Notes under the pieces: generated by a model
The model's input: only the letters and a program-made list of their open reading frames with translations
Database searches by the model: none
Told to the model about the DNA's origin: nothing
DNA from: an uncultured Kofleriaceae bacterium
Lineage (GTDB): Bacteria; Myxococcota_A; Polyangia; Haliangiales; Haliangiaceae
Reading direction: 5' to 3'
NCBI GenBank assembly: GCA_964410875.1
Contig: CAYPIX010000005.1
Span: 4,721 to 68,720, forward strand
DNA: 64,000 bases
In this document: piece after piece, positions 4,695 to 33,500 of the stretch
Layout of the letters: each line of letters begins with the position of its first letter
How positions within the stretch are numbered: the first letter of the stretch is position 1
Made by a program: the position numbers and the translations under genes

Positions 4695-4760
4695 GATCTA
4701 TTTCCATCGAGACGCTTTGAATATTGCAGAAAGGTAGGCAACCGCGCGACTCTCCCCGCC

Positions 4761-20400: not shown

Positions 20401-21494
20401 GTGCCGCCTGTCACCGTGCTCCAAAGCCCGCACTCTCTCTTGAGTTCTTTGTAGTCATTGAAAAAGCTATTCTCTGCTTCGCCGTATGGGTGACCGCCAC
20501 GGCGTACACTTCGATTGGCTTTAATCCACTTCTCCATAAGCTGCTCACCGCGCTTGGTTAAACTCAGAACCGATGCTCTGTTGGTTGTTCCGCGGCCAAA
20601 GTACTTCGCAAATTTGTCAGGTGTGCGGAGCTCGAGGTTCCGAAGATAATTTGCCGTATAGAATAGGAACATTGGCAATAAATTTAAGCTGGTTCCAATT
20701 TGCTTCGTTTCAACCAAGCGGATGAGGCCTTCCGTGCTAAGGCCATACGCAGTGAGCTCATCGAGGATGTGCACGATGCTGGCGGCGCCCCCTACCGGAA
20801 GATATAGGTTTTGAAAATGCTCGACAGTCAATTGGGTCTGTCGGTTTGCAAATCGAATCTTCGAACGAGCGACAGCCGCTGGCGGCAAGGCAAGAGGATC
20901 TAACCTAAAGCAAATGCTTTTGTCTTTTGTTGGGTCCCATACACAGTCGGGACCGGTCAAACCGTGAACAAGTTCATGGGCCAAAGCGATGTAGCTATGC
21001 CGATAGCGCTCAGACGCTTTGTCACTACAATCGAGCCATTTTACGGGACCAATATCCGGATCTTCCCAACGCCATTGGTGCCGCTTTCTTGCCCGAGAAA
21101 CCACACTCCTATAGTTGGACAAACCAAGGCGTTCAATATCCCGGAGCGCTCCTGGCAAACAATCGCTTCCGTTCTTTTTCGATGAAACCACAGGAAGAAC
21201 AGTCCCTTCCAATTTCTCCGATTTAGCCCGAGGCTCTTTGTAGACGAGAAATAGAACCGGGCCCCTCTGGTAGCGCTCTATGAAACAGGTCTTTGAAACA
21301 ACCTCTGTCGGGGTGCCCTCCCCAACGCCCGAGGCCCGGTACATCCGAGCCAAAAATACATCCGCGGTGGCTCGATCGATACATGGGGTCGAAGCCGTAC
21401 TTCGGCCATTTGGCCGACCGCCACAGGCCCCCGTTGCAGTCAAAACCCCCAAGAAAAGGCCCAAAATTCCTCTCTGAGCAAAAAAATGCGTCAC
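20397..21494 (-). CDS. Exported HExxH protein (putative zinc metallopeptidase-like)
   Basis: 365-aa ORF with a signal-like N-terminus, the motif [10 protein letters not shown] and several Cys residues. Confidence 0.5.
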
Positions 21495-21553
21495 TTTGGT
21501 TCAAATGTACGATAGTTCTTCGACAGAGTCCTAAATGTGACTCACATTATAGG

Positions 21554-22207
21554 ATGGCAAACGTTTTTAAGGGCCGTCTAGCAGCGCTTTTCGTAGGCGC
21601 TCTTTTCGTATTGCCCGCCCCACGAGAAGCGTTAGCGGGCAGTGATTGGACAATCTTTGGCAACGTCGGTGGCAACGCCTCGTGGGCCTCTGTAGAGCCA
21701 AGAGGCCCTAGGGATGGCGGCCCACGCTTCGGCCTCGGATTTGGTGGTGGACTCGAAAGAAGGCTGTCACGTGAAATTTCCATCAGCGGTGGCGTTCGCT
21801 ACTCGCAAAAAGGCGTCAATACAGAACTTCTGTCTTTTGGCAGACTGAACGTTACCGGCCAACTCATTCTTGACTACATCGAAATCCCGTTGCACCTCCG
21901 TTGGCAATACCAGCGAAGAGGATGGGACCCCTTCGTTTTTGGCGGTATCTCCTACGGTATTTCTAAGAACCGTGAGCTTAGGGTAGACCAGTTTTCATTC
22001 ATAAACGTCGACGTAGACTCCCGCTTTGACTCCCCGGATATCGTTCTTGACGTTGGAGCAGGAGCAGAAACAAGGTTAGGTCCTGGTTTGTCTCTACGAG
22101 TATGGGTTCAGTACGGGCATGGACTTCAAGACCTTGATAGGAACATCCAAACGTCTTACCACTCTAGGACGCTTACGTTGGGGGTTGGCCTCGCTCACAG
22201 GCTCTGA
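21554..22207 (+). CDS. Small outer-membrane beta-barrel protein
   Basis: Internal start MANVFKGRLAALFVGALFVLPAPREALA (signal peptide) in ORF 21293-22207. It shows an alternating hydrophobic pattern and an aromatic/hydrophobic C-terminal strand. Confidence 0.65.
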   Translation: MANVFKGRLAALFVGALFVLPAPREALAGSDWTIFGNVGGNASWASVEPRGPRDGGPRFGLGFGGGLERRLSREISISGGVRYSQKGVNTELLSFGRLNVTGQLILDYIEIPLHLRWQYQRRGWDPFVFGGISYGISKNRELRVDQFSFINVDVDSRFDSPDIVLDVGAGAETRLGPGLSLRVWVQYGHGLQDLDRNIQTSYHSRTLTLGVGLAHRL

Positions 22208-25093: not shown

Positions 25094-27523
25094 ATGCTGC
25101 GTTTGTTGGAAATCGTGCGAATACAAACCACAATTTACGCAATCGTCGGCGCGCTCATCGCTACCCAAGGGTTACCTCTTGCCCTAGCACAAGATTCGAA
25201 TTTTTTCTTAACCACTCCGGGCCCATTATCTAGTGAGCACGCAAAGTGGGACAACGAAGCCGGCTGCGATTCCTGCCACAGTGGCAAGTCGACTTCGAAT
25301 GCGAAGTGCTTAGGCTGTCACGAACATAAAGACCTGAAAAAAAGAATCGACTCGGGCAAGGGCTACCATTCCATAGCCAAGGTCAAAAAGAAGAACTGCG
25401 CAGTGTGTCACAACGAACACAAAGGGCGTAAGTACAACATCATGGGTTGGGGGTCAGTTCCCGGGGGAGAGCAAGGGTTCAACCACAGCCTTGCAGGCTG
25501 GGATAAAAAGGGAAAACACACCGTTCTTGCATGCAACGCATGTCACAAGAAAACCAACAAAGCGGGTCGTCGAATTTATCTTGGCGCAGACAAGGTTTGC
25601 GGGAATTGTCACAAAGACGACCAGCGCCATGGTTTCCAGCGTGCTTCCATGATGGTTTGCGAAAAATGCCATAGCGAAATCGCGTGGAAGCCAAGCCGAA
25701 AGAAGCTCGACTTCAATCACAACTCCGCGGCTGACGCAGACTTTCCCCAAGAAGGCGCGCACCAAGATGTCTCCTGTGGGAAGTGTCACCCAAAAACCAA
25801 ATTCAATTTAGGCTTCAAAGACCCAAACGAATGTCGCAACTGTCACAAGAGCTCGCACCAAGATCATCTATTTGATACCAAGGCCTGTACGTGGTGCCAC
25901 TCACCGAAGTTGAGCTCTTTTAGAAAACACAATTTCAAACACGAGGAGAAAACTCGCTTTGGCCTGAACGGTAAGCACGCAACTGCCCAATGTTACGACT
26001 GTCACACTTCTCGCTTGAAGAGCAAAAAACCAAGCAGGAGTTGTGCAAGTTGCCACGCGAATGACAATCCACACAGGGACCGTTTCAAGCAATTTGGAGA
26101 ACCGCCCAAGTGCCGCGTTTGCCACACGACCTCCAGTTTCTCCCCCAATCAATTTAGGGGCAACCATGGAGCTTCCACCGGTTTCCAACTCGAGGGTAAA
26201 CATAGAAAAATTACTTGTCGAAGCTGTCACCGCGGACGGAAGCCTTATGAATTTGAACCGCTCGAAGTGACAAAGAAAGGTACGTTGTGCATGAGCTGCC
26301 ATGCGCATAAGAACGTCCATAGCGGTGAGTTCACAGATGTTTCGGACATCGCTCTACGGCCCAAAACGCCCGAAGGACAAGCGAAACGATACTGCCTTGA
26401 ATGCCATAAAAACCCGGGGGCTCTCGATGTTCCGATTAGTGAAATCCCCCAGCACCAAGCCACTGGCAGCTTCCCCCTGGTTGGAGAGCACGCCAAAGTC
26501 GCATGCGATGGGTGTCACACCAATAGTGAGTTTAGAGGTACACCCAAGGAATGTGGAACAAGATGCCACCAGGACACGTTGCATAAAGGCAGCCTGGGTA
26601 AAGAGTGCTCTCGTTGCCATTCCCCAGGTGTCGCCAAATTCGCGAGCGACAGATTCGATCACAACGAAGACACAAAATTTCCTTTGCGAGGCGCGCACCA
26701 AGAGCTGCCCAAGTGTGTAGATTGCCACCCGAACCGGAAGTACGCAGAGACGCCATCAAATTGTTCGGCGGGGCAGTGTCATGCAAAGGACGATGCCCAC
26801 CAGGGTGCGTTAGGTACAACCTGCGAGAACTGTCACTCGGAGACCGAAGAGATTGTCTTTGACCACAACAAACAATCGGAGTTTGAGCTCGATGGAGCCC
26901 ATAGAACCACTGAATGCAGCAAGTGCCACTCCAGTATTACCTTTAAACCCACTCCCAAGACTTGCTATGGCGGTGGAGCTTGTCACCCAGAGCCCGACGC
27001 ACATAAAGGAGAGTATGGCGTTCTCTGCGAGGACTGTCACAACACAACATCCTTCACCCAAATAGAACCGCTACACAACGTGGGTGCTTTCTCTTTGACC
27101 GGCTCACACGATCGCATTTCCTGCGTAAGCTGTCACAAGAACAACCGCCTCTTAAAAGGAAGCGGCAACATGTGCATCAATTGTCATCGCCAAGACGACG
27201 TGCACTCGAACTCACTATCTCCGCAATGTGGTGATTGCCACAATCAATGGAGTTTTGCGCCAGCTAGATTTACTCACCTAACCGTGGGCTGCAACTTGGA
27301 AGGCCTGCACCGCACCCTACCCTGCCGAGACTGCCATAAGGGAGGAAACTTCGGCGCGCTTTCGCCTACGTGTTTCGGTTGCCACGCGGATACAGCGTTG
27401 CGAAAGGGAGTTAGCGGTACCGATCACACTGGGTTCATGACTTGTGCTGAGTGCCATAGTACAAATACCTGGCTACCAGGAATAGTTGGCGTTGGCTTTG
27501 GTAGGGAGTCCATATGCCGATGA
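25094..27523 (+). CDS. Periplasmic multihaem c-type cytochrome, ten triplets of haem-binding motifs
   Basis: ATG 25094 follows a GGGGG SD inside ORF 25067-27523. The signal peptide ends in ALAQD. I count 27 CXXCH plus CGTRCH, CSAGQCH and CYGGGACH. The recurring module is F-x-H...G-x-H...CXXCH. Confidence 0.9.
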   Translation: MLRLLEIVRIQTTIYAIVGALIATQGLPLALAQDSNFFLTTPGPLSSEHAKWDNEAGCDSCHSGKSTSNAKCLGCHEHKDLKKRIDSGKGYHSIAKVKKKNCAVCHNEHKGRKYNIMGWGSVPGGEQGFNHSLAGWDKKGKHTVLACNACHKKTNKAGRRIYLGADKVCGNCHKDDQRHGFQRASMMVCEKCHSEIAWKPSRKKLDFNHNSAADADFPQEGAHQDVSCGKCHPKTKFNLGFKDPNECRNCHKSSHQDHLFDTKACTWCHSPKLSSFRKHNFKHEEKTRFGLNGKHATAQCYDCHTSRLKSKKPSRSCASCHANDNPHRDRFKQFGEPPKCRVCHTTSSFSPNQFRGNHGASTGFQLEGKHRKITCRSCHRGRKPYEFEPLEVTKKGTLCMSCHAHKNVHSGEFTDVSDIALRPKTPEGQAKRYCLECHKNPGALDVPISEIPQHQATGSFPLVGEHAKVACDGCHTNSEFRGTPKECGTRCHQDTLHKGSLGKECSRCHSPGVAKFASDRFDHNEDTKFPLRGAHQELPKCVDCHPNRKYAETPSNCSAGQCHAKDDAHQGALGTTCENCHSETEEIVFDHNKQSEFELDGAHRTTECSKCHSSITFKPTPKTCYGGGACHPEPDAHKGEYGVLCEDCHNTTSFTQIEPLHNVGAFSLTGSHDRISCVSCHKNNRLLKGSGNMCINCHRQDDVHSNSLSPQCGDCHNQWSFAPARFTHLTVGCNLEGLHRTLPCRDCHKGGNFGALSPTCFGCHADTALRKGVSGTDHTGFMTCAECHSTNTWLPGIVGVGFGRESICR

Positions 27524-29178
27524 CCGCACTACGCATATCGGCAGTGGCATTCTGCTTATGTTCCTCTGTGCTTTCCCACGCCGAAGAAAAACGTTCACAG
27601 CGCAATTCGCGATTCTTTTTTGACGAACCCGAGGCCGATGAAGTCTTAACCCAAACAGGCTTTGACGGCAGCCTCGTTTTGACGACCTTATATTTCTCTG
27701 AGTCCTCTCAACCTTTCGATCTGGGAGGAGGGACGCCTGGGCAAAATGCAAGTGGCGTCACACGGTTCTTCACTGACTTAAGAGCCCGCCTGGATGTCGA
27801 GCACATAAAGGGAGGCCGCTGGCATCTGCGGACTGACATTCGAGGTCGGTTAACCCCCGGGGCTTGTCGTACGCAAAGCCGTAGTTCACTCGATGCTTGC
27901 ACGCGGTTTCAGTCGGGTTCTCTATCGGGGAATGAGATCGACTTTAACCAATTCTATTTCACACGCTCCAACGCTGGTTCAACGTGGAGTATTGGCCGTC
28001 AATTTGTGAGCGAGCTCACCTACACAAAGGTCGACGGAATCCGGTATGACCACAAGCTTACAGACAAATGGAAAGCTATCGGTTTCGCGGGTCTATACCC
28101 CGCACTCATTTCCCGGGATATCCGCTCCGATTACCCAGTACTCAACGATGCGTCCACCAGAACCCGCAGACGATCCTTGCCCGTCACGGGTGGCGGTGGT
28201 GTCGCGTACGAGTATGGCAACTACTTCGGCTCGTTTGGCGGAACGGTTATAGCTCCATTGACGAAAGAATTGGGACAGCTTGGCAACGGCGCAGGCGGCA
28301 CTGGCAGAATCGAAAAATTTCGCGTTTTCGCCAACGCTCAAGGGCACGCCAAATTACTTTCAAATTTAGATGTTCATCACTCCGCAATATTTGATGTCCG
28401 AGGCCCAAGTGGCCCCGGATTTACTAACCTCGGTCTCGGTCTTCACTTTCGCCCCTTTAGCGGTTTCCGAACCTACCTACAAGCCACCAGAGTGAGTACT
28501 GACATTCTAAATGTCAATGCGCAGTCTCAGCTCGAGACCCCAGGTAACCAGACCAACGTGGTGCAAAACAATGTAGCAGTACGACGGATTTCTCAAGAGT
28601 CAGCGCGTCTTGGGGCAACGGTTTCCGCGTTTGAGAACCGCTTTGAGCTCTCATCCATAGTCACAGCTCGAAGACGGCCCCGTATCACTCTCATATCTAA
28701 CGCTGGGAACCCTATTGAATTTGGAGCAGCCAAGGCAGTTGAAGTCACCGTTCATGCGGTAGACAAATACTCCTTCGCGGGACTGCGAATTGGGGGTTAC
28801 CTGACTCACTCCCTAGGTATAGGCAAGAACAATCTGAACCGAGGTAGTTACACCTCCGTAGGTGTAGACGCTCGCCGCTCCTTCCTACACGGGAAGGCTG
28901 AGTTTGACGGTTCAGTAACGTACCTTATCTCCACGGACGAAACGCGTTCTCAGTTATGCGACCCACAGAATATTGAAACTTGTTACGGCTCCGCCGCAAC
29001 GTCCTTGCTAGGGCTGACAGCAAATGGCTTCTATCGGTTTTCCGACAGTTGGTTTGTTCTGGGCGGCCTAAACCTGGCAACGCAGGCCAGCAATTCAATC
29101 AATATAGAAGGACAGCGTCGGCGCGCGCCTTCTATATTGATGACAACGTTCTTTAGCCGTCTCGCCTACCGGTTCTAG
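27514..29178 (+). CDS. Outer-membrane beta-barrel protein (porin-like), coupled to the cytochrome gene
   Basis: 554-aa ORF with a signal peptide ending SHAEE and many alternating strands. The C-terminus RLAYRF is a typical OMP terminal Phe. Its start overlaps the cytochrome stop. Confidence 0.7.
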   Translation: MPMTALRISAVAFCLCSSVLSHAEEKRSQRNSRFFFDEPEADEVLTQTGFDGSLVLTTLYFSESSQPFDLGGGTPGQNASGVTRFFTDLRARLDVEHIKGGRWHLRTDIRGRLTPGACRTQSRSSLDACTRFQSGSLSGNEIDFNQFYFTRSNAGSTWSIGRQFVSELTYTKVDGIRYDHKLTDKWKAIGFAGLYPALISRDIRSDYPVLNDASTRTRRRSLPVTGGGGVAYEYGNYFGSFGGTVIAPLTKELGQLGNGAGGTGRIEKFRVFANAQGHAKLLSNLDVHHSAIFDVRGPSGPGFTNLGLGLHFRPFSGFRTYLQATRVSTDILNVNAQSQLETPGNQTNVVQNNVAVRRISQESARLGATVSAFENRFELSSIVTARRRPRITLISNAGNPIEFGAAKAVEVTVHAVDKYSFAGLRIGGYLTHSLGIGKNNLNRGSYTSVGVDARRSFLHGKAEFDGSVTYLISTDETRSQLCDPQNIETCYGSAATSLLGLTANGFYRFSDSWFVLGGLNLATQASNSINIEGQRRRAPSILMTTFFSRLAYRF

Positions 29179-29473: not shown

Positions 29474-30274
29474 GTGCGGAAATATATTTTTGCGTTGGTG
29501 GTATTAGCTGGGTGTGTCGGGGGAGACGAAGGCGACACAATTTCTTTTGATAGGCCGTCGATTTCTGAAGGGGCAATCGCACTGTACGATTTTGCGCCGC
29601 TTGACGGAGATATTCAGAATCGCATTGTCCCCGACCTAACCGAGAACGGAAACGATTTGTTCTTTGGAGGCGAATTTGACGTGGACGCCGAATGGGTTTT
29701 GGATGAAGAGGACCCGCTTGACAACGGAATTGCTTTTCTCGACAGGACCAGACTTCGAAGCGTAAGAAATATGACCAACATGACAGAAGCTTGCAACGAC
29801 ACAAGCTCTGTTACTATCGACGTAGTCGCGACCTCAGTTGGCGACCTGTCTGCTGGTACATTTGTTGAGTTTGCCAACCAGGAAGGCCGCGGTTTCAGGG
29901 TTAGGCACAATGGAACTCTTATTGAGGCCCTGGTTTCACATGGCGATGAAATAAATGGAAGCCCGCAATTTGCCTCCAATTCAGACATCTATGGTCTAGT
30001 ACGCAACCATATAGTAGTCCGCTCTGCACTGGGAGGAGCTGACGTTCACGTCGACCTCGATCGTGGCGAAACGCCTCGGCCAGGAAGCGATGGCCCTATG
30101 AATTGGGACAACGAGTTCGAACTCTACGTAGGCAACACCTTTAGCAACAATGACTCACTCGACCTTGGTACCACACTCCATCGGCTAGCGATTTATTGCG
30201 GCGAGCTTACAGACGAACAGCTCAGAGCAAATGCCGCTTCTGCGGGATTAGAAATCCCCGCAGAAGAAGAGTAA
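29474..30274 (+). CDS. Lipoprotein with a LamG/concanavalin-like C-terminal signature
   Basis: GTG 29474 follows a GGGGGGGAAG SD. The lipobox is VVLAGC. The C-terminal LHRLAIYCGELTDEQL resembles the LamG-domain end motif. Confidence 0.55.
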   Translation: MRKYIFALVVLAGCVGGDEGDTISFDRPSISEGAIALYDFAPLDGDIQNRIVPDLTENGNDLFFGGEFDVDAEWVLDEEDPLDNGIAFLDRTRLRSVRNMTNMTEACNDTSSVTIDVVATSVGDLSAGTFVEFANQEGRGFRVRHNGTLIEALVSHGDEINGSPQFASNSDIYGLVRNHIVVRSALGGADVHVDLDRGETPRPGSDGPMNWDNEFELYVGNTFSNNDSLDLGTTLHRLAIYCGELTDEQLRANAASAGLEIPAEEE

Positions 30275-30311
30275 TCAAAAGGTATTTTTTCCAATAACAA
30301 GAGGTCGAATT

Positions 30312-32144
30312 TTGAAAACAATCTTAGTAATAGCCGTAATTTCTGGCTCGGTGTTTCTCCCGAGCCTCGCGACTGCACAAACACGAACCGTTACATACAC
30401 CCAGCTTCGCAATGGTGATTACGCTGGAGAAGTTCAACGACTAGAGCCTCTGTCTTCTGGGCGAGTGCAAGCACAGGAACAGGTAGGGGCCGGTGGAGAA
30501 CATGCATCGACCGCCGTTTCCGGTCCTTTTGTTACGACCGCCGTTATTTCTTCCTACATGCGCGATGAAGACGGAGATGGCACTCCTGAAGTGCCAATGC
30601 CGGACATTATTCAGCTGGAAGGTTTTTTCGGTAGACTGTCAGCGACAGGAAGCATTGAACCCATTGAGGAATGCCCTCAGGGTCTAAAAGGCTTGGTTCT
30701 CACAAACAACTCGGGCGATCGATATCGAAACGGCCATGCTCCCAGAGTACTCACTCTAGGCGTCGCCGATGGCAAAGATGCCTCTGATCCTAGGCAACAT
30801 CTCTTTCGTATCAAGTACAACTATGCACCTGCGGATGAGGACGAAGAATCCAATGCACGCGCACGTTCGTATTCGAAGATTGTGAACGCCTGTGGTGAAG
30901 TGTTGTCCGTTGAACAAGAAGACGGACAGCTAGCAAGTCTCATCATCGCTAAAGAAAACGATGACTGCTCTGAGCACGACATGAAGCCCGAATTTCTCCA
31001 CAAAGACTACATCGACGGTGAATCTGGCGAGCGAGTACTAAACGTATTTGGTGTCTATGGCTGCAATGGCAATGGAAGAGACGACGGTTGGGCCAGCTAT
31101 GATGAAACTCGCTGCACATTTAGCGAAGAAGGAATTCCGAGTTCTTGTACAGGTGGGCAGCTCAGTGATGTTTCAATTATTACGCAAGAGCAACGCTCCC
31201 GAATGCTTGTAGAAGAGACCTCTGATCCCAACTTGATGGTCTATGTAGGGGTGGAGGGAAACACAAATCCACCCAATCAAGGTGTTGAGGTTGGCCTCGT
31301 ACGCATTGGTGAGGGAGGCGTTCTTGAGCAGGTATTTGAAGCGTATTACGCACGTTCGAGCCCTGGCAACGATCTCTATGAAACTGAGCCGCGCGGCTAT
31401 GGTTTAGTGGATGAGAACGGCGTCCCTACTGGCGTAATTCACATTACCAACACTCAAATCCACCGCGTCGATAACCGTACTAAAGGCGAAGCGAGGATGC
31501 TCGCTGGGCGAGTGCAAGTCGACGTTGAAGAGCAGACTATTTCCATTCTCAATCAACGGCAGTCGGTACATGATGTCATGCCCGGGCTTGAAGCCACCCA
31601 TGTCGGCGAGTGCGCCGTAGACAATGCTGGTCTCATCCTCAGCAGTTCCCATTCAGGTAATCACGAGAACCCGATGGTTGGCTTCTTGTATAACTGGACG
31701 CTGAACGACGATGTTCAACAGGCGAACCTAACGAACCTTGGTCAAACAAACCTAGTGGCGGCCCATGATAACCGATACATATCGAACATATTGGGCAACA
31801 ACCCGCGGAACCAAGGGAAGAACTTCCTTGGTTGCAAGGAAGTACCTAATCCATATTTCAATGTCGATGACGCGGATAACAAATGCGCAAAGACGTTAGT
31901 CGTGATGGGTGTTAACCCTCGTGAGGTTCGCGAGGGGACAAATATTCCATTCGACAAGCTAAGCACTGGGATTGTTGTTACTTCAGGTGTAATCGACGGC
32001 GATTGTGCTGGTACGGCCGGTGGAAACACGGGCGGAAGCGGCTCCGGTGGAGGTTGCTCAACCGGCCAAAACAGCTCAGCGGTTGGCCTATTGGCCTTCC
32101 TTGGGCTGATTGCTTGGCGTAGACGTCGGAATGAAGCAGTTTAG
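30312..32144 (+). CDS. Large exported protein with a MYXO-CTERM-like tail, unknown family
   Basis: 610-aa ORF with a TTG start after AAGAGG. The signal peptide ends in ATAQ. The C-terminus is GGGCSTGQNSSAVGLLAFLGLIAWRRRR. Confidence 0.7.
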   Translation: MKTILVIAVISGSVFLPSLATAQTRTVTYTQLRNGDYAGEVQRLEPLSSGRVQAQEQVGAGGEHASTAVSGPFVTTAVISSYMRDEDGDGTPEVPMPDIIQLEGFFGRLSATGSIEPIEECPQGLKGLVLTNNSGDRYRNGHAPRVLTLGVADGKDASDPRQHLFRIKYNYAPADEDEESNARARSYSKIVNACGEVLSVEQEDGQLASLIIAKENDDCSEHDMKPEFLHKDYIDGESGERVLNVFGVYGCNGNGRDDGWASYDETRCTFSEEGIPSSCTGGQLSDVSIITQEQRSRMLVEETSDPNLMVYVGVEGNTNPPNQGVEVGLVRIGEGGVLEQVFEAYYARSSPGNDLYETEPRGYGLVDENGVPTGVIHITNTQIHRVDNRTKGEARMLAGRVQVDVEEQTISILNQRQSVHDVMPGLEATHVGECAVDNAGLILSSSHSGNHENPMVGFLYNWTLNDDVQQANLTNLGQTNLVAAHDNRYISNILGNNPRNQGKNFLGCKEVPNPYFNVDDADNKCAKTLVVMGVNPREVREGTNIPFDKLSTGIVVTSGVIDGDCAGTAGGNTGGSGSGGGCSTGQNSSAVGLLAFLGLIAWRRRRNEAV

Positions 32145-32157
32145 ACAGGGGAACTAC

Positions 32158-32964
32158 ATGAAAAAGCCGAGATGGTTATTAGTTTGTATTACCGCTTTGC
32201 TTGCGCCTCTTGGGTGCGAGAGCGGCGGACCGCAAACAATCAGCGGAAACAATGCACAGCCCGTTTATGAATCTACTGTGAGCCCTCTTTTGGCTCGATG
32301 CGAAGGCGGGCCCTGCCATTCTGGGGCCGCGGATGAAGCGCCGACCAAATTTTGCGGTGACGGAGGAGGCTGCAGTTACGCTTCTGTCATTTCATTTCCA
32401 GTCATAGATAACTTCGGCAGAAATCCAAGTTTGATCTCAAGGGTTTCCTCCGAGCACTTTGGGACTTCTTTTAATGAAGAGGAGAAACAGAAAATATTGG
32501 CTTGGCTTTCAGCCGAGAGGGAAGCTAGAGGTGGCGTAGTCGATGTCCCCACTATAGCCAGCCCTGCATTCCAGCGTTTTTTCGACTGCATGACAATGGA
32601 GGAGTGGGATTTACATGACATGGGTGACTGGTCTGCCAAAGACACCAATAGCAACAATGGTGACGACACCTGCGCCACTTGTCACTCAGACTTTCAGTTT
32701 GGGTTTCACACTCCAAGGATCAATCAGGAGATGTTTGATGACCACAAAGACAACATCAACCTCGCTGGCTATTCCTTCATCATAGAAGATGTAAACCCAC
32801 TTAGTGGGACATCCACGATTCGCCCTGCCCACGCCAAGCTTATGCGCATGGCAACTGGTGCGCACCCACGATTTTCTTACGATGTTGCGGACGCAAACCG
32901 TATTGATCTAGACAACTGGGTTGAGGCGGTCAACAGGCGTATAGAGGAGGACGATTGTCCATGA
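32158..32964 (+). CDS. Lipoprotein with CXXCH and C-x4-CH motifs (putative haem c protein), paralog A
   Basis: Internal start MKKPRWLLVCITALLAPLGC. It has CEGGPCHSG in the N-terminal part and CATCH in the C-terminal domain shared with the next gene. Confidence 0.6.
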   Translation: MKKPRWLLVCITALLAPLGCESGGPQTISGNNAQPVYESTVSPLLARCEGGPCHSGAADEAPTKFCGDGGGCSYASVISFPVIDNFGRNPSLISRVSSEHFGTSFNEEEKQKILAWLSAEREARGGVVDVPTIASPAFQRFFDCMTMEEWDLHDMGDWSAKDTNSNNGDDTCATCHSDFQFGFHTPRINQEMFDDHKDNINLAGYSFIIEDVNPLSGTSTIRPAHAKLMRMATGAHPRFSYDVADANRIDLDNWVEAVNRRIEEDDCP

Positions 32965-33500
32965 GGGGAACTTGTATGCAGAAATCATATGCAACAATTG
33001 GTTTGGCAATCTTCTTTGCTGTGGGATGCACAGGCGAATTTGAGGATGTTGGACCTCAGACCATCTCAAATGTTGACCCATTGGCAGTGTGGTCTTCCTG
33101 TATGAATTTTGATGATTGGGAAGAGTCTGGAATGGGCTCATGGGCCACAAAGCCGGCATTTGGCGGTGTCGTCTGCGCATCTTGTCACCTCTATGGTCAA
33201 GGCGGGTTCCGCACAGATGAAGAAAGCTTGCACATGTTTGAATTCAACCGATTCAGCACAATGATCGGTGGTTTCTTTGTGGCAATGGACGGAAGAGTCG
33301 AAGGTGCTGTGCAGCAACTCCAATCAGTAGGGATGGGAGCTGGCCTTCACCCCACTTACCCAACAGGTGGAGTCAACGGCGTGGGAGATCCCCATTTTGA
33401 CAGCCTAAACGAATTTGTTCGCTTGACCCAGCAACGAGTTGATCAAGGGGATTGCAGCGGTGGTGGCTATCCTAGCGAATTGCCCGTCTTCGAGGAATGA
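32961..33500 (+). CDS. Lipoprotein with a CXXCH motif, paralog B
   Basis: The ATG forms an ATGA overlap with the upstream stop. The lipobox is FFAVGC and the haem motif is CASCH. It is colinear with the C-terminal domain of paralog A (CM..(D/E)W...MG.W..K...C..CH...GF.T...MF...HP...DC). Confidence 0.6.
   Translation: MRGTCMQKSYATIGLAIFFAVGCTGEFEDVGPQTISNVDPLAVWSSCMNFDDWEESGMGSWATKPAFGGVVCASCHLYGQGGFRTDEESLHMFEFNRFSTMIGGFFVAMDGRVEGAVQQLQSVGMGAGLHPTYPTGGVNGVGDPHFDSLNEFVRLTQQRVDQGDCSGGGYPSELPVFEE

Follow-up and report, generated by a model that had tools for sequence, protein, structure and literature searches.

The 64,000-nucleotide (nt) stretch of DNA analyzed here (hereafter, the window) covers positions 4,721 to 68,720 of the forward strand of contig CAYPIX010000005.1 from an uncultured Kofleriaceae bacterium of the order Haliangiales, whose genome (GenBank assembly GCA_964410875.1) is a metagenome-assembled genome (MAG) in 245 contigs. 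Between positions 25094 and 29178, it carries two overlapping genes, one for a multihaem cytochrome and one for a large outer-membrane beta-barrel, which an earlier note, made from the sequence alone, had put forward as a translationally coupled pair and a candidate electron conduit across the cell envelope. The features of this gene pair are as follows (slashes mark signal peptide ends).

25094..27523, + strand: multihaem cytochrome gene, 809 amino acids (aa) from ATG 25094, mature protein of 777 aa
25094..25189, + strand: Sec signal peptide of the cytochrome (MLRLL...LPLALA/QD), read from the sequence, its position matching the signals of the orthologues in the alignment
27503..27508, + strand: AGGGAG, ribosome-binding-like site of the barrel gene, within the last codons (G-R-E) of the cytochrome
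27514..27523, + strand: start/stop overlap, with the barrel ATG at 27514 (10 nt) or at 27520 (ATGA, 4 nt) and the cytochrome TGA at 27521-27523
27514..29178, + strand: outer-membrane beta-barrel gene, 554 aa, of a family without annotation, with 22 predicted strands and the C-terminal end RLAYRF
27514..27582, + strand: signal peptide of the barrel (MPMTALRISAVAFCLCSSVLSHA/EE; ...VLSHA/EE), read from the sequence

Both open reading frames, their overlap, and the two possible ATG starts of the barrel described in the earlier note are confirmed by the sequence, as are the signal peptide of the barrel and its terminal RLAYRF; for the cytochrome, an alternative start at GTG 25067 is also possible. 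At the junction (...GGT AGG GAG TCC ATA TGC CGA TGA), the AGGGAG site is 5 nt ahead of ATG 27514, and its G(A/C)G(G/A)GAG-TC context is the same in most related loci. The arrangement extends to those relatives: in 56 of 58 loci, a start codon of the barrel frame lies at −10, at −4, or at both, counted from the cytochrome stop, and the overlap of the two genes is thus an ancient, conserved feature. The C-terminal G-R-E-S-[IV]-C-R of the cytochrome (window 27500-27523) doubles as the ribosome-binding site and both start codons of the barrel. Its [IV]-C-R end is invariant because it is dual-coding with the barrel start, such that conservation at the protein level may stem from the overlap and not from any role of the terminal Cys.

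The cytochrome has 30 predicted haem sites of the bis-His type (27 CXXCH motifs, plus CGTRCH, CSAGQCH, and CYGGGACH), which are grouped in ten c7-like triplets. The mature protein is densely packed with haems (~26 aa per haem; isoelectric point of 8.7); there are 64 His residues in total, and 32 His residues outside the haem motifs are invariant among relatives. No lipobox is present in its signal sequence, and the exported protein would be soluble. Pfam model Cytochrome_C7 (PF14522) matches seven stretches of the protein with 110.7 bits (cut-off of 24.8), and PF14537 matches with 78.1 bits: with its repeated Cytochrome_C7 modules of three haem sites each, the protein is a cytochrome of the tandem trihaem c7/c3 type. 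It falls outside the DmsE/MtrA decahaem family, scoring 21.8 bits with TIGR03508, for which the cut-off is 192.2, and its other NCBIfam matches, among them cytochromes of selenite/tellurite reduction operons, are weak and far under cut-off. Orthologues that share 43 to 56% identity with it adjoin every related barrel. A profile search of Protein Data Bank (PDB) sequences returned no match at E ≤ 0.001, and an AlphaFold2 model built on a 10-sequence alignment is unusable (predicted local distance difference test [pLDDT] of 35; predicted template modeling score [pTM] of 0.21). Tandem trihaem c7-like modules also make up GSU1996, GSU0592 (12 haems each), and GSU2210 (27 haems), the polymeric c7-type cytochromes of Geobacter sulfurreducens, of which GSU1996 forms an extended, 12-nm “nanowire”; we know of no barrel with which these Geobacter proteins are paired.

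The barrel matches no Pfam (E ≤ 0.01) or NCBIfam model, that of the MtrB/PioB family included, and a profile search of PDB sequences with it returned nothing at E ≤ 1. It nevertheless has the general attributes of an outer-membrane barrel, namely, a signal peptide, an even number of strands, and a C-terminal aromatic beta-signal. Its AlphaFold2 model (35-sequence alignment; mean pLDDT of 82; pTM of 0.76) has 22 long strands, with turns of 2 to 6 residues on the periplasmic side and long loops on the opposite one. Past the signal peptide, the N terminus is extended by ~25 residues only, and the barrel therefore has no plug domain; as modeled, it is neither of the things, a small porin or a plugged one, that the earlier note took as fatal to a conduit. 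The strands alternate between a hydrophobic, lipid-facing side and a polar, lumenal side, with 31 of the 41 conserved in-strand residues on the latter; Arg, Asp, and Glu cluster in the lumen on strands 2 to 4, 10 to 11, 15, and 22, and R549 and R553 near the C terminus are invariant in the 35 homologues. Conserved residues of the lumen include R84, R90, D108, R110, R112, E141, R270, D294, E378, and R388 as well as these two. In TonB-dependent receptors, a barrel of 22 strands holds a plug of ~150 residues, and a trihaem module of ~75 residues would therefore fit sterically within a barrel of this size.

Foldseek searches of the PDB with the barrel model recover generic large barrels only, all with template modeling (TM) scores below 0.5: 24-strand ushers, 22-strand TonB-dependent receptors, and 18-strand porins, with MtrB (6R2Q chain B) at rank 29 (TMq of 0.34). 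Since the best of these matches are to the pilus ushers FimD and PapC, the barrel could be conceived as an export or assembly device that moves the cytochrome onto the surface or into a matrix, or polymerizes it there, and the extra cytochrome paralogues without a barrel of their own at some related loci (outside the type-2 lineage described below, some loci carry a second cytochrome copy of 27 to 30 haems 3′ of the barrel) would agree with such a device. But the usher scores (TM of 0.24 to 0.35) are such as any large barrel would give, the protein has neither the plug nor the N- or C-terminal domains of an usher, no chaperone gene accompanies it, and the inner-membrane haem-b partner described below implies a cytochrome that keeps its link to the inner membrane. 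We consider a role in export improbable.

The association of the two genes is obligatory across genomes, as a functional pairing of the kind envisaged in the earlier note would predict. Wherever the contig is long enough, the barrel lies directly 3′ of the cytochrome, both in 20 loci of related genomes and in 80 loci retrieved with a cytochrome profile. Of the 41 genomes closest to that of the window, both genes are present in 31 and missing from 9, the remaining one having a barrel that a contig edge truncates, and none has the cytochrome alone (Fisher p = 2.9e-8 for co-occurrence). Adjacency, too, is far beyond chance. (A search for related loci with the single barrel sequence found no relative, but an alignment of cytochromes did find loci.) These loci belong to MAGs classified as Kofleriaceae, Haliangiales, “Haliangium sp.,” and Myxococcales, and even metagenomic contigs whose barrels are distant homologues (31 to 39% identity) preserve a fixed order: a ~723-aa Fer4 membrane protein, a multihaem cytochrome of ~785 to 800 aa, and then an overlapping barrel. 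Open frames of 1058 to 2019 aa that resembled cytochrome-barrel fusions were rejected: cytochrome and barrel are read in different frames, and high G+C content accounts for the spurious long ones.

The barrel occurs in all 24 of the other sampled genomes of the family to which the window belongs and in most of its order, versus 10 of 401 genomes in an even sample of the phylum, and nearly all of those 10 belong to the same order. An exhaustive search of 1.84 billion representative proteins yielded 282 clusters at 50% identity, making this a small, unannotated family that is largely restricted to Haliangiales. Weak relatives of the barrel adjoin homologous cytochromes of ~30 haems in Bdellovibrio, where the barrel is the upstream gene (E ~1e-9), and in a few further deltaproteobacterial MAGs. 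Homologous cytochromes with 32 to 42 haems, adjoined by no barrel match, are encoded in Anaerolineaceae/Chloroflexi MAGs (loci L094, L100, L102, and L103) and in Nitrospira (L098). At three of the Chloroflexi loci (L094, L100, and L102), the long cytochrome adjoins a short membrane protein of the HX13H type, and a module of inner-membrane protein plus long cytochrome therefore exists beyond the classical diderm porin-cytochrome systems.

In most related loci, a third gene, directly upstream of the cytochrome, encodes an inner-membrane protein (IMP) fused to an iron-sulfur (FeS) region. This FeS/IMP protein begins with ~215 aa in which no Pfam domain is detected even at E ≤ 10, continues with a HydN/DmsB-type polyferredoxin (two canonical CX2CX2CX3C motifs and further Cys clusters), and ends in a domain of five hydrophobic helices in which WX3HX13H occurs twice and SGXXG once; neither a flavin nor an NAD(P)H domain was detected in it. 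The version in the source genome of the window is on contig C160, directly upstream of a paralogous cytochrome, with the motifs (W535, W703, and SG575) in the C-terminal part of a 742-aa open frame (a fusion of ~720 aa). He et al. described two WX3HX13H motifs and one SGXXG as characteristic of the conserved IMPs in the PCC3 and PCC4 clusters that they predicted, and interpreted them as a ferric-reductase-like di-haem b domain (PMC5566968). Stand-alone IMPs of ~300 aa in Methylotenera and Methylophilus have the same motifs in the same order.

The order FeS/IMP, cytochrome, barrel constitutes the canonical triad of the Haliangiales. Its flanks (L001, L004, L005, L109, and contig C7 of the source genome) comprise fmt, rsmB, rpe, and a response regulator with a helix-turn-helix domain on one side and, on the other, a MoxR/DUF58/BatA-like/VWA cluster that resembles the Bacteroides aerotolerance operon; such surroundings may be plain vertical synteny or a link to oxygen stress.

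The window pair is one of two copies in its genome. The canonical copy is split over contig ends (C160:2449-6122 and C7:65881-67098): C160 carries the FeS/IMP gene and then a cytochrome cut at the contig edge, and what remains of the barrel at the end of C7 is its C-terminal 406 aa, followed by a 150-aa gene and the VWA, BatA, DUF58, and MoxR genes of the canonical flank. Two metagenome contigs (L110 and L111) contain a near-identical version of this canonical copy, intact. In the barrel tree, the window copy is sister to the other copy of its own genome plus that of one close relative, well inside the canonical clade, and is therefore a lineage-specific duplicate. Cytochromes of the two copies are 68% identical and barrels 55%; synonymous divergence (dS) is saturated, nonsynonymous divergence (dN) is 0.24 for the cytochrome and 0.36 for the barrel, and all 30 haem sites are retained. 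Saturated dS against low dN, together with the retained haem sites, indicates that both copies are maintained by selection, and the window pair is, as judged from these comparisons, an old duplicate under purifying selection. Two traits of the cytochrome are lineage specific and common to both paralogues of this genome: the middle motif of module 8, C[FY]GGGACH (CX5CH; window 26963-26986; residues 624 to 631), where all other relatives have CFGCH, and a 16-residue insert between haems 14 and 15 (about 26342-26389; residues ~417 to 432).

Unlike the canonical copy, the window pair adjoins no inner-membrane gene. Upstream, on the opposite strand, is udk, and downstream is an unrelated operon for exported proteins. 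The isolation of the pair amid unrelated genes is what might be expected if the adjacency were incidental and the barrel an ordinary porin, or if the window copy were a decaying duplicate. Against this stand the essentially perfect co-occurrence and synteny, the conserved overlap, and the state of the window genes themselves, both of which are intact, have dN far below saturated dS, and retain every haem site, such that we give this explanation almost no credence. Having no inner-membrane gene of its own, the window pair probably shares the FeS/haem-b protein of the canonical copy, or else uses another donor. Further multihaem cytochrome genes, with 7 to 14 CXXCH motifs each, are present in the genome (C33:1-9412, C28:10253-11557, C59:1514-6550, and C43:3276-5222), along with genes for cytochrome c maturation; C33 holds a four-gene cluster of multihaem cytochromes, and on C59 a protein weakly paralogous to the FeS/haem-b membrane protein is encoded ahead of one of 1212 aa that has 7 CXXCH motifs. 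These other multihaem proteins are possible alternative partners of the window pair.

No third cytochrome is encoded in the window, as the earlier note had observed, but one does accompany the barrel in a paralogous lineage. This separate barrel clade, which we term type 2, includes at least seven loci (L046, L047, L049, L053, L060, L064, and L067), and probably also L057, L069, and L081; it is an older lineage. In type-2 loci, the FeS/IMP gene is divergently oriented, and, at the seven loci named first, a 23-haem cytochrome of ~1150 aa (22 to 24 CXXCH motifs) lies 3′ of the barrel, its N terminus a lipoprotein signal (..AC/DLG); none was found in the fetched flanks of L057, L069, and L081. 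Type-2 loci thus have the layout of MtrCAB and of the Geobacter Pcc clusters: a periplasmic cytochrome, a barrel, and a surface lipoprotein cytochrome. The position of a lipoprotein cytochrome after the type-2 barrel provides the strongest indirect argument that this barrel family passes electrons rather than solutes.

The latter option, in which the cytochrome would store or relay electrons in the periplasm (as a “capacitor” or as the partner of a periplasmic reductase) and the barrel, without sheathing any haem, would be a dedicated diffusion channel for a soluble redox substrate (an oxyanion, a metal chelate, or a compound of the humic or quinone-like sort), has several observations on its side. 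The fold matches are generic (porin, TonB-dependent receptor, usher), the conserved and charged residues of the lumen are of the sort seen in substrate-specific channels, most loci, the window included, have no extracellular cytochrome, and selenite/tellurite operon cytochromes are among the weak NCBIfam matches, although these are far below cut-off. However, a plug-less barrel of 22 strands would be unusually wide for a solute channel, strict 1:1 translational coupling maintained over deep divergence suggests stoichiometric assembly, and the type-2 lipoprotein cytochrome makes sense only if electrons cross the outer membrane through protein. Solute diffusion is, in our assessment, an unlikely function of the barrel, if the least unlikely of the three alternatives considered here.

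Passage of electrons through the barrel invites comparison with established conduits. MtrAB, MtoAB, and PioAB share with the window pair the logic of a large barrel that presumably holds a periplasmic multihaem cytochrome, the two being encoded side by side, and MtoAB and PioAB likewise have no extracellular cytochrome. In contrast with MtrAB, the window cytochrome has 30 haems rather than 10 and is not of the DmsE/MtrA family, and the barrel has 22 strands rather than the 26 of the MtrCAB structure (PDB 6R2Q) and no MtrB_PioB match. The window system is therefore not a member of the MtrAB family: of the likeness to MtrAB and the Geobacter Pcc clusters drawn in the earlier note, the conduit logic holds (given the large plug-less barrel, strict synteny, FeS/IMP protein, and third cytochrome of type-2 loci), but kinship with MtrAB does not. 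For Geobacter, where the OmaB-OmbB-OmcB and Ext clusters were compared by gene content only, the match is with the type-2 Haliangiales loci; the window pair differs from the Geobacter Pcc clusters in that it has no lipoprotein cytochrome and in that its cytochrome has 30 haems, whereas those of the OmaB and OmcB types have 8 and 12.

The closest resemblance is to PCC3, a porin-cytochrome cluster that was predicted from genomes in 2017 and is known from genomes only (PMC5566968, PMC9900912). Its described components are an IMP of ~300 aa with five transmembrane segments, a periplasmic multihaem cytochrome of ~21 to 27 haems, an extracellular multihaem cytochrome of 10 to 63 haems, and a porin, and Methylotenera is listed among its carriers (PMC5566968). 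In Methylotenera and Methylophilus, we find clusters of an IMP, a 27-haem cytochrome, a 32- to 60-haem cytochrome, and a ~735-aa barrel ending in ...YRWDF. The window cytochrome is collinear with these 27-haem cytochromes over residues ~14 to 807 (tblastn identity of 32 to 34%) and is thus, as judged against these Methylophilaceae proteins, a homologue of PCC3-type periplasmic cytochromes. Given this alignment and the motifs of the IMP (absent from the window, but present on C160 and upstream in most related loci), the Haliangiales system shares two of the four PCC3 components by homology. Also as in PCC3, the barrel is in the same operon, and the ratio of amino acids to haems is very low (26 here).

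The two systems differ in other respects. Neither the window nor the canonical Haliangiales triad includes an extracellular cytochrome, and in the triad the barrel gene comes after those of the IMP and the cytochrome without a giant extracellular cytochrome intervening; the Haliangiales IMP is fused to a cytoplasmic region of ~440 aa (the unassigned N-terminal domain plus the polyferredoxin) and, at the window copy, is missing in cis; and the locus, hosted by Myxococcota, is near universal and vertically inherited. The barrels differ in size (~550 aa and 22 strands against ~735 aa), and homology between them is doubtful: alignment of the Haliangiales barrel with PCC3 porins in hhalign is weak (E of 0.0084 at 4.8% probability), and the inclusion of intermediate barrels gives an E of 7.4e-4 at 25.7% probability over 82 columns, with the match always falling on GRQ..DG..G.AG.P..RS. 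As judged by sequence similarity, then, the Haliangiales system appears to be a PCC3-like variant in which the IMP and the cytochrome are homologous, the barrel family is different or very remote, and the IMP is fused to a polyferredoxin.

Compared by layout, PCC4 subgroup II also resembles the Haliangiales system in having a barrel in the cluster and no extracellular cytochrome. In that subgroup, an FeS (ferredoxin-type) protein is encoded directly ahead of the HX13H IMP, and one genome annotates both as a single gene. PCC4, however, has three small periplasmic cytochromes (of 4, 5, and 10 haems) where the Haliangiales have a single 30-haem protein, and its IMP family was reported to have no sequence similarity to the IMPs of PCC3 (PMC5566968). 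Our search of the literature on Myxococcota, Haliangiales, or Kofleriaceae in connection with PCC3 or multihaem conduits found no paper describing the present system; one preprint reports many novel multihaem clusters in Myxococcota.

We regard it as probable, with moderate confidence, that the window pair constitutes the periplasmic and outer-membrane half of a PCC3-like porin-cytochrome electron conduit. The components, their export signals and motifs, and their obligatory association are shown here; the path of the electrons would be as follows. Electrons would pass across the inner membrane between cytoplasmic FeS clusters and the two predicted b haems, and would then follow the chain of 30 c haems in a rod-like cytochrome that spans the periplasm. 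By analogy with the 12-nm dodecahaem GSU1996, this chain would be roughly 25 to 30 nm long, and even the 21- to 27-haem cytochromes of PCC3 have been argued to be long enough for the periplasm (PMC9900912). Terminal haem modules sheathed by the 22-strand barrel, as MtrA is in MtrB, would let electrons leave or enter the cell. With an entry point at cytoplasmic FeS clusters, electron export to an extracellular acceptor is the more natural reading.

Several points weigh against such a conduit. We infer both the insertion of a haem module and the openness of the lumen, and, in the barrel model, long loops (residues 114 to 140, 195 to 223, 248 to 269, and 329 to 359) could constrict that lumen. 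The extended shape of the cytochrome is likewise assumed by analogy, its own AlphaFold2 model being of very low confidence; the homology of the barrel to PCC3 porins is suggestive only; and both the present family and PCC3 are known from genomes alone. In cis, the window copy lacks both a partner in the inner membrane and an extracellular cytochrome. Finally, cultured Haliangiales are aerobic gliding predators, and near universality in an order with aerobic cultured members is unusual for mineral respiration, such that the system may have another role.

Downstream of the pair, positions 29474-33500 hold an operon whose four genes are for exported proteins, namely, a lipoprotein, a protein of 610 aa that weakly matches MYXO-CTERM, and a pair of paralogous lipoproteins with a single CXXCH each. 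None of the four has a Pfam domain. The CXXCH motifs that the earlier note had ascribed to this operon are thus present, in two lipoproteins, but as a conserved partner, and as the missing extracellular component, the operon was rejected, there being no homologue of it near any of ~100 related loci. Paralogues of its fourth protein and of a 327-aa neighbor on the minus strand are encoded elsewhere in the genome (C122 and C188). Upstream, at window 21293-22207, is a gene for a small outer-membrane beta-barrel (Pfam OMP_b-brl_2; E of 8e-14) that is unrelated to the 554-aa barrel.

Porin-cytochrome conduits allow Gram-negative bacteria to exchange electrons with minerals, electrodes, and partner cells, and, to our knowledge, only the Mtr type is structurally understood. 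The locus described here would be a compact, two- or three-gene version built on an unannotated barrel family, in which a single cytochrome is probably long enough to bridge both membranes, and its small size makes it attractive for structural work and heterologous reconstruction. Fusion of the IMP to cytoplasmic FeS clusters bears on where PCC3-type systems get or deliver their electrons. More speculatively, and with a low likelihood in our view, the triad might be a core, vertically inherited, organelle-like wire of the Haliangiales, through which electrons from cytoplasmic FeS clusters bypass the quinone pool and follow a 30-haem chain that threads the barrel, for a purpose other than mineral respiration (e.g., NOX/FRE-like reduction of O2 or iron at the cell surface, for prey killing, iron acquisition, or redox balancing); if so, the window pair would be a second outlet on the same inner-membrane module. 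Given the distribution of the system among the Haliangiales, extracellular electron transfer would reach into an order whose members are regarded as aerobic predators.

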